64,000 nucleotides of DNA from the IMG/VR virus record IMGVR_UViG_3300025413_001239. The stretch is one strand, 5' to 3'. Positions 43,190-46,624 of the stretch are shown piece by piece. The stretch comes from a virus. Taxonomy: Duplodnaviria; Caudoviricetes. The translations under genes were made by a program, and so were the position numbers. The notes beneath the pieces are model-generated. The model was not told the DNA's origin. It ran no database searches and was given only the letters and a program-made list of their open reading frames with translations. Every line of letters starts with the position of its first letter. The first letter of the stretch is position 1.

Positions 43190-43339
43190 ACTTTCTAATT
43201 TGTTAACAATAATATCGTATATTTGCATCAGAATAAACAAAAAGGGTCGTTAAAAAAAAAGTTTTAAAAAAACTTGACAAATTAAAAAACTTTTCGTATA
43301 TTTGCATATATTTATTAATAACGAACAAAAATTATCACA

Positions 43340-43441
43340 ATGATAGCAAACATAAACAATATGATTAATTCGATAAATTGGAGACATAATAGTCGCTCAA
43401 TTAATCAAGTCATGCTATCTAGTGATGTTAATAAAATATAA
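43340..43441 (+). promoter_or_regulatory. Leader peptide 1 (33 aa, Asn/Ile-rich) of a putative attenuator
   Basis: MIANINNMINSINWRHNSRSINQVMLSSDVNKI between promoter (43297) and terminator. Confidence 0.7.
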
Positions 43442-43462
43442 CAAATTAAATCACAAATAACG

Positions 43463-43500
43463 AAAAGCCTCTGACTCATACGAATCAGAGGTTTTTTTTT
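43463..43500 (+). terminator. Attenuator terminator 1
   Basis: GCCTCTGA-CTCATACGAA-TCAGAGGT plus T9. Confidence 0.85.
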
Positions 43501-43504
43501 ACCC

Positions 43505-43678
43505 ATGTCAGAAGAAATACGATATAAGAAATTAGGTGTTGTAAAACAAAAAGACTTGGATGCTGATTTTGATTCGATATACGATAAGTATAAGAGTATT
43601 GCTTTAGAACTTGGTTTAACAGGTGATTTAAAGTTTGTAAAAGAAAAGGGTAAAGTAATAATTTACATAGCTATTTGA
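43505..43678 (+). CDS. 57-aa hypothetical protein (MSEEIRYKKLG...)
   Basis: Open frame directly after the attenuator terminator. Confidence 0.55.
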   Translation: MSEEIRYKKLGVVKQKDLDADFDSIYDKYKSIALELGLTGDLKFVKEKGKVIIYIAI

Positions 43679-43694
43679 CATTTAGGAAAAACAC

Positions 43695-43795
43695 ACGTAA
43701 ATGACCGAGTGGTCGAAGGTGGTAGGCTCCAACCCTACTGAGATATATAACATTTATGTTAGGTCTCCGCATAGGTTCAAATCCTATTTTACGTG
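43695..43795 (+). tRNA. tRNA(CCA), Trp anticodon, 32-nt variable arm
   Basis: GTAGG-CTCCAAC-CCTAC; class II-type D arm; ATAGG-TTCAAAT-CCTAT. Confidence 0.75.
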
Positions 43796-43805
43796 CAAAA
43801 TATAT

Positions 43806-43972
43806 TGGTAGGTGATGAAATTAGGAATTATATTCCGATGGCAGACATGCCCAATTGTCTCTTGGGTGGTGATAACGAGATAGATAAACAATACAGGGTT
43901 GACCACTAGCTTGCAAGCGTTAATGTTGTTTATTGAATCGCACCGTGGATGGTTCGAATCCTCCTCTACCAG
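43806..43972 (+). ncRNA. 167-nt tRNA-like RNA (GTC loop, D-loop insertion, 80-nt extra arm)
   Basis: TGGTAGG/TCTACCA acceptor, TTCGAAT T-loop, CCCAA-TTGTCTC-TTGGG arm. Confidence 0.7.
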
Positions 43973-44016
43973 CAATAGTTTACTTGGACAACGTTCTTAA
44001 AATCGGAGTCCGTCAT

Positions 44017-44099
44017 GGAGAGTGGCACCCAAGGTGGGTAACTAGACTTGAAATCTAGGCCAAGGTAAAAACTTGAGGTTTCGATTACTTCACCATCCG
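44017..44099 (+). tRNA. tRNA-Ser (TGA), two acceptor mismatches
   Basis: CTAGA-CTTGAAA-TCTAG, long variable arm, G73. Confidence 0.75.
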
Positions 44100-44127
44100 C
44101 AATTTTGGTTGTTTTTTACTTTTTTTT

Positions 44128-44216
44128 GGAGAAATAAGGAGGGTAATGGTGGACCCCGTCCGTTTGCTAAACGGAAACCCATTAAGTTGGGCACGTTTCG
44201 ATTACGTATTTCTCCG
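44128..44216 (+). tRNA. tRNA-Ser (GCT)
   Basis: GGAGAAA/TTTCTCC; TCCGT-TTGCTAA-ACGGA. Confidence 0.85.
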
Positions 44217-44219
44217 CTG

Positions 44220-44305
44220 GATATATTGGCAGAGTGGTTTAATGCAATTTGCGTGAAGCAAATGGTCCTTAAAGGGCCCACAGGTTCGAATCCTGTATAT
44301 TATCT
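44220..44305 (+). tRNA. Degenerate tRNA-Ser-like gene (TGA, G33, bulged acceptor)
   Basis: GCA-GAGTGGTTTAA-TGC D arm, ATTTG-CGTGAAG-CAAAT, canonical T arm. Confidence 0.55.
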
Positions 44306-44313
44306 CTAAATAT

Positions 44314-44385
44314 GGGTTTCGAAGCTTTAAGGTGAAGCGCAAGTTTGTGGCACTTGAGAACTCGGTTCGATACCGTGCGTTACCC
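44314..44385 (+). tRNA. tRNA-His (GTG) with G-1:C73, acceptor mismatches
   Basis: CAAGT-TTGTGGC-ACTTG. Confidence 0.7.
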
Positions 44386-44419
44386 CAAAATTGTTTTAAG
44401 TAATTAACTGTTAAAAAAT

Positions 44420-44492
44420 GGGTAGTTAGTTCAACTGGTAGAGCACTGTTCTGATACGACAGCCGTTACAGATTCGACTTCTGTACTACCCA
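44420..44492 (+). tRNA. tRNA-Ile (GAT)
   Basis: GGGTAGT/ACTACCC; CTGTT-CTGATAC-GACAG. Confidence 0.9.
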
Positions 44493-44497
44493 CAAAT

Positions 44498-44666: not shown

Positions 44667-44734
44667 CAAATTAACTTTTTTTGTTAATTATTTGACTTTT
44701 TGTTCGAACTGTGTATATTTATAATAAAGAATAT

Positions 44735-45481
44735 ATGAAAGAAAAAATATTAGAATTAAGGAAAAATGGGTTATCAATAAATGAAATAGTTGAAGAGTTA
44801 AAGTGTGCTAAAAGTACTGTTTCATACCATATAAATAAAAACGGTTTAGGTGGTATTAGAAATAGGTTCTTAAAAGGTGTTAGTGATGAAACGATAAATA
44901 AAATTAAAATTTTTAGATTAGAGTCTAAAACATATAATGAAATTTTAGAGTTAATTGACATAAGTGAGGATAAATTAAAAAAAATTTGTCGATTATTTGA
45001 GATAAATAATAGTACTGGTGGTTTTAAACTTAAAGATGTTGATAAAGATGAGGTTATAAAGTATTATTTATCTGTAAAATCAATACGAAAAACTGCTGAT
45101 TATTTTAATATTAGTAGAGACACAGTTAAAAAATATATACCTGACAATCTTATCTTAATTAAAGATAAAATAACCAAATCACAATCAGTTATTAATTGGC
45201 GTAAAAGAACAAAAATTAAATTAATTGATTATAAAGGTGGTTGTTGTGAAAAGTGTGGTTATAATAAATCTACATCAGCATTACAATTTCATCATTTAAA
45301 CCCTAAAGAAAAGGATTTTCAAATTGGTGGTTCAAGTTATTCATTTGAAAATCTAAAAAAAGAAGTTGATAAATGTATATTAGTATGTGCAAATTGTCAT
45401 ATCGAAATACATGAAGAATTAAGGATTTGTAGCTCAGAGGCAGAGCATTCGTTTGTTAAACGACAGGTCGAGATATCGTAA
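44735..45481 (+). CDS. HNH homing endonuclease with HTH repeats
   Basis: CCEKCGY..ALQFHHLNPKEKDF..CILVCANCHIEIH; start re-called after TATTTAT. Confidence 0.85.
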   Translation: MKEKILELRKNGLSINEIVEELKCAKSTVSYHINKNGLGGIRNRFLKGVSDETINKIKIFRLESKTYNEILELIDISEDKLKKICRLFEINNSTGGFKLKDVDKDEVIKYYLSVKSIRKTADYFNISRDTVKKYIPDNLILIKDKITKSQSVINWRKRTKIKLIDYKGGCCEKCGYNKSTSALQFHHLNPKEKDFQIGGSSYSFENLKKEVDKCILVCANCHIEIHEELRICSSEAEHSFVKRQVEIS

Positions 45482-45494
45482 TTCTCCATTAGCG
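45423..45494 (+). pseudogene. Second tRNA-Asn copy with unpaired acceptor stem
   Basis: 54/58 nt identical to 44602-44659; GGATTTG cannot pair with CATTAGC; overlaps the HNH 3' end. Confidence 0.8.
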
Positions 45495-45499
45495 CACAT

Positions 45500-45569
45500 T
45501 GCGTAGGTTATCGGAATACAACCATCTCTCATAAGGAAGGTCAAGGCGGTTCAGCTCCGCTCTACGCAA
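45500..45569 (+). tRNA. Degenerate tRNA(CAT)
   Basis: TGCGTAG/CTACGCA, CTCATAA loop with weak stem, TTCAGCT T-loop. Confidence 0.55.
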
Positions 45570-45572
45570 CAT

Positions 45573-45645
45573 GGTTCCATAGTTCAATGGATTAGAACAG
45601 ATGATTACGAATCATCCGATAAGCGTTCGAGTCGCTTTGGGACTA
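45573..45645 (+). tRNA. tRNA-Arg (ACG)
   Basis: GATGA-TTACGAA-TCATC; full cloverleaf. Confidence 0.9.
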
Positions 45646-45646
45646 C

Positions 45647-45758
45647 AGTATAGTAAATGTGATATAAGAAGAACTAATATCAGGTGGAGTTAGTGTCCGT
45701 ACCACGTTAAAAAATTGTGATGATTATACAAGGTGTTGTCGAGTACACAACTATACTA
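45647..45758 (+). ncRNA. Multi-arm tRNA-shaped RNA without canonical anticodon arm
   Basis: AGTATAGT/ACTATACT closes hairpins TGATAT/ATATCA, GTGG/CCAC, TTGT/ACAA and GTGT-TGTCGAGT-ACAC. Confidence 0.55.
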
Positions 45759-45761
45759 TTT

Positions 45762-45788
45762 GGTCTTGTCGTTCAATGGATTAGGACT
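45762..45788 (+). pseudogene. 5' half of a split tRNA (acceptor + D arm)
   Basis: GGTCTTG-TC-GTTC-AATGGATTA-GGAC; GGTCTTG pairs with CGAGACC at 46474-46480. Confidence 0.75.
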
Positions 45789-45795
45789 ACTATAA

Positions 45796-45868
45796 GCTTC
45801 TATGGTGTAACTGGATAACACTTTTGCCTTCTAAGCAAACTTTCTGAGTTCGAATCTCGGTAGGAGCA
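45796..45868 (+). tRNA. tRNA-Arg (TCT)
   Basis: GCTTCTA/TAGGAGC; TTTGC-CTTCTAA-GCAAA. Confidence 0.9.
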
Positions 45869-45921
45869 CTAGTTAAATGGATATTTTTTTTCTTTTTCCA
45901 TTTAACGATATATTTATTAGT

Positions 45922-46458
45922 ATGGAAAAAGAATTTTTAATTGATTGTATTAATAAAGGGTTAAGTCTAAAAAAAATAAGTAAATTATGTGGTAAAGCAC
46001 CTAGTACAATAACATATTGGTTAAATAAATTTAATTTAAAAACTAATAATTTGTCGTTTAAAGTTAAAGGAAAAATTGATTATAATAATCAAAGATGTTG
46101 CCCAAAATGTAAAATTACTAAAGAATTAAATGAATTTTATAATAGACGTGATAAAATAGGTAGTTCAGTTTATTGTAAAACTTGTACCAATAAACAAGTT
46201 TTAGATAGACAACGGGAACTTAAGCAACAAGCTGTTGATTATAAAGGTGGGTATTGTATAATATGTGGTTATAATAAATGTAATGCGGCGTTAGAATTTC
46301 ATCATTTAGAACCAGATAAAAAAGATTTTAGCATTAGTCAATTAAAAAAATATGCCTTTACTGAAAATATAAAAAAAGAATTAGATAAATGTATTTTGTT
46401 ATGTTCTAATTGTCATAGAGAATTTCATTCTGGTATTTTAATTCTAAGCAAACTATAG
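45922..46458 (+). CDS. HNH homing endonuclease
   Basis: CPKC..CKTC, CIICGY..ALEFHHLEPDKKDF..CSNCHREFH; start re-called after TATTTAT. Confidence 0.85.
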   Translation: MEKEFLIDCINKGLSLKKISKLCGKAPSTITYWLNKFNLKTNNLSFKVKGKIDYNNQRCCPKCKITKELNEFYNRRDKIGSSVYCKTCTNKQVLDRQRELKQQAVDYKGGYCIICGYNKCNAALEFHHLEPDKKDFSISQLKKYAFTENIKKELDKCILLCSNCHREFHSGILILSKL

Positions 46459-46481
46459 CAGTTCGAATCTGCTCGAGACCA
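46442..46481 (+). pseudogene. 3' half of a split tRNA-Arg(TCT)
   Basis: TTCTAAGCAAACT (shared with 45829-45841), AGCAG-TTCGAAT-CTGCT, CGAGACC-A. Confidence 0.8.
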
Positions 46482-46491
46482 CATTTTTTAT

Positions 46492-46579
46492 GGAGAGCAA
46501 ACCCTGACGGTGAGGGGGTCCGCCTGCTAAGCGTGAAGTTCGGCGAAAGCTGGATTCGGTTCAACTCCGATGTTCTCCG
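46492..46579 (+). tRNA. tRNA-Ser (GCT), second copy
   Basis: GGAGAGC/GTTCTCC, CTGCTAA loop, long variable arm. Confidence 0.8.
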
Positions 46580-46600
46580 CATTTTTCATTTGTTGTTTTT

Positions 46601-46624
46601 AAGGGTACTTCGGTACCCTTTTTT
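46601..46624 (+). terminator. Terminator ending the second tRNA array
   Basis: AAGGGTAC-TTCG-GTACCCTT plus T run. Confidence 0.85.

Follow-up and report, generated by a model that had tools for sequence, protein, structure and literature searches.

In the attenuators of the enterobacterial ilvGMEDA, ilvBN and thr operons, as in those with the trpL, hisL, leuL and pheL leaders, a short leader with many regulatory codons is translated ahead of an intrinsic terminator, and the position of the ribosome decides whether an alternative antiterminator forms. In the ilv (Ile/Leu/Val) and thr (Thr/Ile) leaders, several amino acids are sensed by one leader. In Escherichia coli, the phenylalanyl-tRNA synthetase operon pheST is attenuated by the leader peptide pheM; this attenuator governs a translation component that serves the sensed codons and thereby feeds back on decoding capacity. 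Here we analyze a locus in a 64-kb stretch of viral DNA (IMG/VR record IMGVR_UViG_3300025413_001239; the whole stretch is called the window), in which a leader ORF (open reading frame) and a terminator precede an array of transfer RNA (tRNA) genes. We conclude, with a probability of about 80%, that this locus is a ribosome-mediated (leader-peptide) transcription attenuator controlling the phage tRNA operon, and that the array tRNAs are probably made only while the codons of the leader are decoded slowly.

The proposed mechanism is that of the classical trp/his/ilv/thr attenuators, and a short ORF that is kept, codons matched to the function of the operon and an intrinsic terminator between leader and genes were all found. 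The phage element differs from the enterobacterial attenuators in that it governs tRNA genes and not biosynthetic enzymes. Its leader samples up to nine tRNA species (seven amino acids), mostly with one to few codons each and without single-codon runs, and each array is preceded by a further cassette in which the sensor has been rewritten. The region-1:2 anti-antiterminator is not conserved in the phage family, and the untranslated default may therefore be readthrough. The controlled component in pheST is a cellular synthetase protein for one amino acid, whereas here it is the tRNAs themselves, in a virus. The novelty lies in the regulated object, the viral setting, the breadth of the sensor and its modular reuse before each array; full-text literature searches turned up no account of tRNA genes controlled by a leader peptide. 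In T-box riboswitches, the choice between terminator and antiterminator also follows the state of a specific tRNA. However, T-boxes need no translation: the uncharged tRNA itself is bound, by means of a specifier codon and the T-box sequence, and their targets are synthetase, biosynthesis and transporter genes. No match to the T-box (RF00230) or to another Rfam cis-regulator was obtained in 41700-46700, where only tRNAs were matched even at E values up to 1, and identity with a T-box was rejected.

From 5′ to 3′, the locus consists of the promoter cassette, the 33-codon leader ORF, the terminator, a 57-aa ORF, the tRNA array and a closing terminator. An earlier note on this DNA, made from its letters without database searches (the sequence-only reading), had described the promoter, leader, terminator, small ORF and array, and each of them was found where it had placed them. 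The central parts are as follows.

43340..43441, + strand: leader ORF, 33 codons and a stop codon; its peptide is kept in 16 related loci
43349..43405, + strand: sensor codons 4-22, each read by an array tRNA
43467..43500, + strand: intrinsic terminator, with a hairpin at 43467-43492 and a nine-T run at 43492-43500
43505..43678, + strand: conserved 57-aa ORF, the first gene past the terminator; function not assigned
43695..46580, + strand: tRNA array, from ARAGORN and Infernal (Rfam)

The sensor codons cover Asn, Ile (ATA, ATT), Met, Ser (TCG/TCA, AGT), Trp, Arg (AGA, CGC) and His. According to the sequence-only reading, 27 of the 33 leader codons, and 21 of the first 22, are read by tRNAs of the downstream array. 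Both counts were reproduced by its rules; under strict wobble rules, in which TCT and GAT are left out of the count, the values were 25 of 33 and again 21 of 22. In the genes of the window, array-read codons make up 37% of all codons by the former rules and 29% by the strict ones. The maximum match among 14249 33-codon segments of these genes was 23 (20 strict), and that among 22-codon segments was 18 (14 strict). When the 298 small ORFs in the six frames of the window were compared, the leader ORF alone attained the observed match. Furthermore, the leader uses codons that are rare in the phage, TCG being 4% of its Ser codons and CGC 1% of its Arg codons. Since the match exceeds that of every gene segment and since the rare TCG and CGC are used, base composition does not explain the pattern.

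The leader samples separate isoacceptor classes: AGA and CGY, TCG and AGT, ATA and ATT. Each of the nine anticodon classes detected with ARAGORN or Infernal is matched by at least one leader codon. The claim that every anticodon class of the array is represented therefore stands for these nine, but not for an RNA with a GTC loop (Asp), which was detected neither by ARAGORN at relaxed thresholds nor by Rfam and was the only unconfirmed item in the tRNA list of the sequence-only reading.

Related uncultured viral contigs were gathered through the neighboring dNMP kinase and the 57-aa ORF. In 16 distinct loci, synteny extended over the promoter, leader, terminator, 57-aa ORF and tRNA array. The leader was present wherever a homolog of the 57-aa ORF precedes tRNAs, and it was absent from all eight loci without tRNAs. 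The reading frame of the leader is kept. The changes among close relatives include synonymous substitutions and 3-nt indels that leave the frame intact. Over codons 4-19 the sequence varies among the 16 homologous leaders; nevertheless, 250 of 256 residues fall within H/I/M/N/R/S/W, the amino acids of the array, compared with approximately 40% past position 19. At the loci where the complete array lies in the fetched sequence, 15-16 of the 16 core codons are read by the tRNAs of the locus itself. TCG is retained in nearly all leader homologs, and CGC/CGT in most.

Additional tRNA arrays occur in the related contigs. A -7 box, a small ORF and a terminator accompany each of them, and the cores of their leaders change with the arrays. 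A leader rich in Glu and AGA-Arg precedes Glu-ttc and Arg-tct, and an F/D/A/E core stands before Phe, Glu, Asp and Ala tRNAs. The K/T/G/Y/Q/P core is followed by Pro, Gln, Tyr, Thr, Gly and Lys tRNAs; the K/P/Y/D/A/G/C core by Tyr, Pro, Asp, Gly, Ala, Cys and Lys tRNAs, which is exactly that set; and the T/L/F/V/Q/M core by Gln, Thr, Phe, Val, Leu and Met tRNAs. An L/C/V core, of a type homologous to the second module of the window (described below), precedes Cys, Leu and Val tRNAs. When the seven leader types were compared with the seven arrays, the matched fraction was 0.53-0.71 for the own array and 0.22-0.26 when the pairings were permuted. Of the 5040 possible pairings, the true one alone scored highest in each of four scorings, whether codons or amino acids were compared and whether the whole leader or its first 20 codons were used. 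Covariation of codons and anticodons in homologous loci, which the sequence-only reading had proposed as a check, was thus observed. Judged on sequence comparison, we regard this covariation between leader and array across relatives as the decisive evidence. The leader types begin alike (M-x-T-x-(T/N)-N-I) and their cores are otherwise unrelated. Because they share this N-terminal start, the cassettes look like paralogs in which the sensor part has been rewritten.

An intrinsic terminator is present in all homologs, and its stem sequences differ between lineages. In the window, its energy is -13.1 kcal/mol, or -17.5 kcal/mol with the flanking A/U extension. The stop codon of the leader lies 22-30 nt before the terminator arm in every homolog; therefore, a terminating ribosome cannot mask the terminator. 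For the same reason, a pyrBI-like logic, in which a closely trailing ribosome melts the terminator, was rejected.

The antiterminator was sought by folding the nascent RNA cut at the terminator loop, when the 3′ arm is not yet present. In 13 of 15 homologs, the 5′ arm of the terminator was predicted to pair with leader codons ~21-26, around a conserved Met codon. Since the terminator stems differ between lineages, a covariation test was possible: the 24 nt around this Met codon were paired with the own terminator 5′ arm or, for comparison, with the arm of each of the eight remaining terminator classes. The mean energy of the duplex with the own arm was -10.8 kcal/mol, compared with -7.2 kcal/mol for permuted arms (p = 9e-5). 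At the family level, an antiterminator that excludes the terminator is thus predicted. The structural elements of the copy in the window are as follows.

43408..43416, + strand: antiterminator 5′ strand (region 2: AGUCA, then GCU), predicted to pair with 43466-43476 of the terminator 5′ arm
43372..43406, + strand: hairpin P1 within the sensor codons (AAUUGG/UCAAUU and GAC/GUC)
43341..43348, + strand: start-region strand GAUAGCA, which can pair with UGCUAUC at 43413-43419 (-9.8 kcal/mol)

Region 2 of the window sits at the conserved, covarying position of the family (codons ~21-26). In 15 homologs, hairpin P1 was 85% paired, and some of its changes were compensatory. It abuts region 2 without overlap, and it may act as a pause or stacking element. 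The pairing of GAUAGCA with UGCUAUC competes with the antiterminator of the window; it was limited to the window and the nearest relatives, with no conservation across the family at large, and in these folding models it is a possible anti-antiterminator.

The sequence-only reading had assigned the antiterminator to 43368-43383. Its core proposal, a leader of translated type that mirrors the downstream tRNAs and is coupled to a terminator switch, is supported by the seven leader types, the kept frame and the covarying antiterminator, but the site it named is not. The segment 43368-43383 is located within the sensor codons, and its duplex with the 5′ arm amounts to no more than -5.1 kcal/mol, or -8.3 kcal/mol with part of the 3′ arm included. 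It was rejected as the antiterminator: the segment would lie under the stalled ribosome, and lineages that have other terminators showed no covariation. In one related contig (L054), the best duplex was a comparable pairing of UUGGAGAC with GUCUCUGA. Thus, the 43368-43383 pairing is kept as a minor alternative, and 43408-43416 is more likely the antiterminator.

The position of the ribosome was then represented by a 30-nt mask. The antiterminator pairing stayed intact with the A-site at codons 1-17 and was lost at codons 18-28. This boundary (codon 17/18) falls where the conserved sensor codons end.

Based on these results, the following course of events is proposed. RNA polymerase would start at the strong promoter and transcribe the 33-codon leader, which a ribosome would translate while the polymerase advances to the terminator. 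Codons 4-22 would serve as a multivalent sensor in which every tRNA species of the downstream array is represented by one codon or more. Should decoding at any of them be slow, the ribosome would not yet have reached codon ~18 when the 5′ arm of the terminator emerges; the segment of codons ~21-26 would then be free to pair with this arm, and the polymerase would continue past the terminator to transcribe the 57-aa ORF and the tRNA genes. If all codons are fast, the ribosome would cover the segment of codons ~21-26, the terminator would form and a transcript of ~190 nt would be released. The element would measure how quickly the ribosome passes ~17-19 codons, each of them read by an array tRNA. 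Because any delay before codon ~18 would have the same structural outcome, many different codons could act as sensors in one leader, which would explain the unusual design with one codon per isoacceptor. The net effect would be a demand-driven negative feedback of the phage on its own tRNA supply; as the circuit would produce the same tRNAs that it senses, it would feed back on decoding capacity. Candidate causes of slow decoding are the AT-rich codon usage of the phage relative to the host tRNA pool, the decay of host tRNAs in infection and host anticodon nucleases.

Several points weigh against this proposal. The antiterminator of the window is weak (AGUCA and GCU against UGACU and AGC, -6.5 to -7.9 kcal/mol) and appears in the predicted folds only where the start region is masked. 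In all models of the full-length RNA, the terminator prevailed at equilibrium (probability 0.8-0.99). None of the ribosome masks displaced it in equilibrium folds, and a thermodynamic switch was therefore rejected. The switch would have to be kinetic, since the terminator wins at equilibrium, and folding programs cannot show kinetics; in the trp attenuator, the structural choice is likewise kinetic. In formal terms, a ribosome that has arrived at the stop codon exposes region 2 once more, and why termination should follow is an assumption. Coupling of transcription and translation in the presumed Bacteroidota host is also assumed. The counts of leader-1 homologs are not independent because the loci share ancestry, and the independent evidence consists of the seven leader types. 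A cultured relative was found neither by megablast of the locus nor by tblastn of an 891-aa protein against cultured phages, and a search with the dNMP kinase matched only distant cultured phages. Finally, a promoter-like site at 44692-44719, ahead of the first homing-endonuclease-like ORF in the array, could supply the distal tRNAs independently of the attenuator.

Four other explanations were considered, two of which retain the attenuator and change its trigger. In the version given by the sequence-only reading, the trigger is a host tRNA-cleaving defence (anticodon nucleases of the PrrC, RloC, VapC or PARIS type), and the cassette acts as a sensor for counter-defence through which replacement tRNAs are induced. 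Phage tRNAs can indeed substitute for cleaved host tRNAs. Moreover, the sensor samples single isoacceptors, even through the TCG and CGC codons that the phage hardly uses, and such a design suits the loss of single tRNA species better than general starvation. However, there is no pointer to a nuclease in the sequence, and the sensors across the arrays span nearly all amino acids, far beyond the known targets of anticodon nucleases. A plain supply-and-demand loop, arising for example from a mismatch between phage and host codon usage or from host tRNA decay during infection, accounts for the same data. We consider a nuclease as the trigger to be unlikely.

The attenuator might instead sense amino-acid starvation or overall translation capacity and tune tRNA synthesis to the nutrition of the host. 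A stalled ribosome reports charged tRNA and cannot tell a missing amino acid from a missing tRNA, and classical attenuators read amino acids. On the other hand, extra tRNA gives no relief from amino-acid starvation, and a general capacity sensor needs no match between the leader and its own array down to isoacceptor classes. This possibility is judged improbable.

An arrangement without any sensing is more doubtful still. The short ORF would then encode a small functional peptide or be incidental in a small RNA, and the terminator would be a constitutive partial stop that sets the tRNA level. The terminator that is always thermodynamically favored and the weak antiterminator of the window fit this view, as does leader 2 of the second module (62474-62554), whose peptide resembles a hydrophobic membrane peptide and for which no antiterminator was found in the truncated fold. 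Left unexplained, however, are seven unrelated leader cores that spell their own arrays (1 of 5040), substitutions confined to the amino-acid set of the array (250/256) and the covariation between the leader segment and the terminator arm (p = 9e-5). We therefore regard it as very improbable.

In TnaC, SecM and ErmCL, the translation status of a short upstream ORF likewise decides downstream expression, but there a fixed peptide acts in the exit tunnel, whereas the phage leaders conserve codon identity (tRNA class), which changes with the array. That the leader is a nascent-peptide arrest element of this kind, stalling the ribosome in response to a small molecule, is hardly credible: the leader-1 peptide is conserved (N-I-H ... 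S-I-S-N-W-R-R-N-S) with a Trp near position 13-14, and TnaC has a Trp near such a position, yet the leaders of the other arrays share the first residues alone (M-x-T-x-x-N-I), their seven unrelated cores following their own tRNAs, and core substitutions are free within the set of the array, where an arrest peptide would need fixed residues. Invariant residues common to all members were not found, and a TnaC-like arrest peptide was rejected.

We return to the other parts of the attenuator locus, beginning with its promoter. Virtually all long ORFs of the window are on the + strand, and the segment is phage-like. The box CGTATATTTGCA occurs 13 times in the window, every copy on the + strand, where a motif search gave a chance expectation of 0.4; we take it to agree with the TAnnTTTG -7 element of Bacteroidota promoters. 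The leader promoter (TTGACA-17-TATATT, 43274-43302) carries this Bacteroidota-type -7 box and was graded strong.

43253..43318, + strand: main promoter cassette, 66 nt, with TTGACA at 43274-43279 and the -7 box at 43295-43306
43216..43227, + strand: -7 box CGTATATTTGCA of an upstream tandem promoter, 79 nt ahead of the main box, from the motif search and the repeat family

The cassette 43253-43318 has a 95% identical copy at 41746-41811 and a similar one at 62385-62450. The first of these copies opens the stretch 41746-42377, in which it is followed by ~400 nt without a convincing ORF, G+C-rich and structured-looking segments at ~41870-42010 and ~42100-42210, and two tRNAs with CAT anticodons on the 3′ side (42214-42286 and 42291-42377). 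No leader/terminator cassette and no Rfam match were found in this stretch. A 48-aa ORF with a run of eight Thr lies on the minus strand at 41306-41452, among the few minus-strand gene candidates, and a bidirectional terminator-like palindrome (41275-41298) adjoins it within the stretch 41275-41452. For the 57-aa ORF behind the leader, a Pfam search gave no family above the cut-off.

The array consists of the following tRNAs and ends at a predicted terminator. The two CAT tRNAs are Met and/or Ile2.

43695-43795, + strand: Trp-cca, carrying a 29-nt insert
44017-44100, + strand: Ser-tga-like
44131-44217, + strand: Ser-gct-like
44219-44306, + strand: Ser-tga
44315-44386, + strand: His (gtg)
44420-44493, + strand: Ile-gat
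44498-44571, + strand: CAT tRNA
44595-44667, + strand: Asn (gtt)
45492-45568, + strand: CAT-like tRNA
45573-45646, + strand: Arg-acg
45796-45869, + strand: Arg-tct
46492-46580, + strand: Ser-gct
46601..46628, + strand: terminator closing the array operon, from terminator prediction

With ARAGORN and Infernal combined, the array holds three or four Ser tRNAs (tga, gct). The 29-nt insertion of tRNA-Trp(CCA) is in the variable region and can fold its own hairpin. This tRNA scored 53 bits in Rfam and was missed by ARAGORN; the relatives have a normal Trp tRNA of 72-73 nt at this place. Two ORFs resembling HNH/HTH homing endonucleases interrupt the array, one right after tRNA-Asn (44711-45500) and one right after tRNA-Arg(tct) (45877-46470). 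Both end in a partial copy of the tRNA immediately upstream: 45423-45500 is 85% identical to 44595-44672 of the tRNA-Asn region, and 46442-46470 is 86% identical to 45829-45857 in tRNA-Arg(tct). For two stretches inside the array, 43796-44015 and 45650-45795, neither a tRNA nor an Rfam family was matched; they may represent decayed tRNAs or uncharacterized small RNAs.

The second module of the window comprises a promoter (62407-62436), the 26-codon Leu/Val/Cys-rich ORF called leader 2 and a terminator (62579-62610). The terminator ends 2 nt ahead of tRNA-Cys, after which Leu-taa and Leu-aag follow (tRNAs at 62612-63562), and the end of the window falls inside an apparent further tRNA (from ~63961). 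By eye, ACUGGG of leader 2 (codons 21-22) can pair with CUCAGU of its own terminator. A homolog of this module, on the reverse strand of the related contig L075, precedes Cys, Leu, Pro and Val tRNAs. A search for relatives of the 195-aa protein neighboring leader 2 gave none.

Two further observations were made in the related contigs. In L057, two leader-1 cassettes stand in series in one array (6835-6990 and 8395-8550), and their terminator stems are different. A tRNA with a CTA anticodon (amber suppressor; 'Pyl' in ARAGORN) is present in L003, L005, L006, L007, L011, L022, L024, L029 and L030. In several of the contigs, it is the first tRNA past the kinase gene, and it was not found in the window. 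These tRNAs are hints of TAG reassignment or suppression in part of the phage group.

Why phages carry tRNAs, and what they use them for, is debated; compensation of codon usage, sustained translation as host tRNAs decay and escape from tRNA-targeting defences have been considered. If the proposed attenuator is real, its sensor of slow codons would make this question directly testable, with readthrough at the attenuator as a read-out of tRNA sufficiency in infection. It is tentatively possible, at odds well below even, that large phages of Bacteroidota-type hosts run each tRNA block as an independent demand-driven feedback loop. The loop would use a duplicable cassette of promoter, shared leader N-terminus, rewritable sensor string with one codon per isoacceptor, and terminator, and each cassette would gauge the decoding speed of the codons that its block serves. 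The same sensor would detect cleavage or depletion of host tRNAs, so that it could double as an inducible counter-defence that replaces the attacked tRNAs. The attenuator itself, if real, would extend textbook attenuation from amino-acid biosynthesis to tRNA genes, to as many as nine tRNA species in one leader, and to a virus, and it would be a natural, compact and re-programmable part for sensing the decoding of chosen codons.

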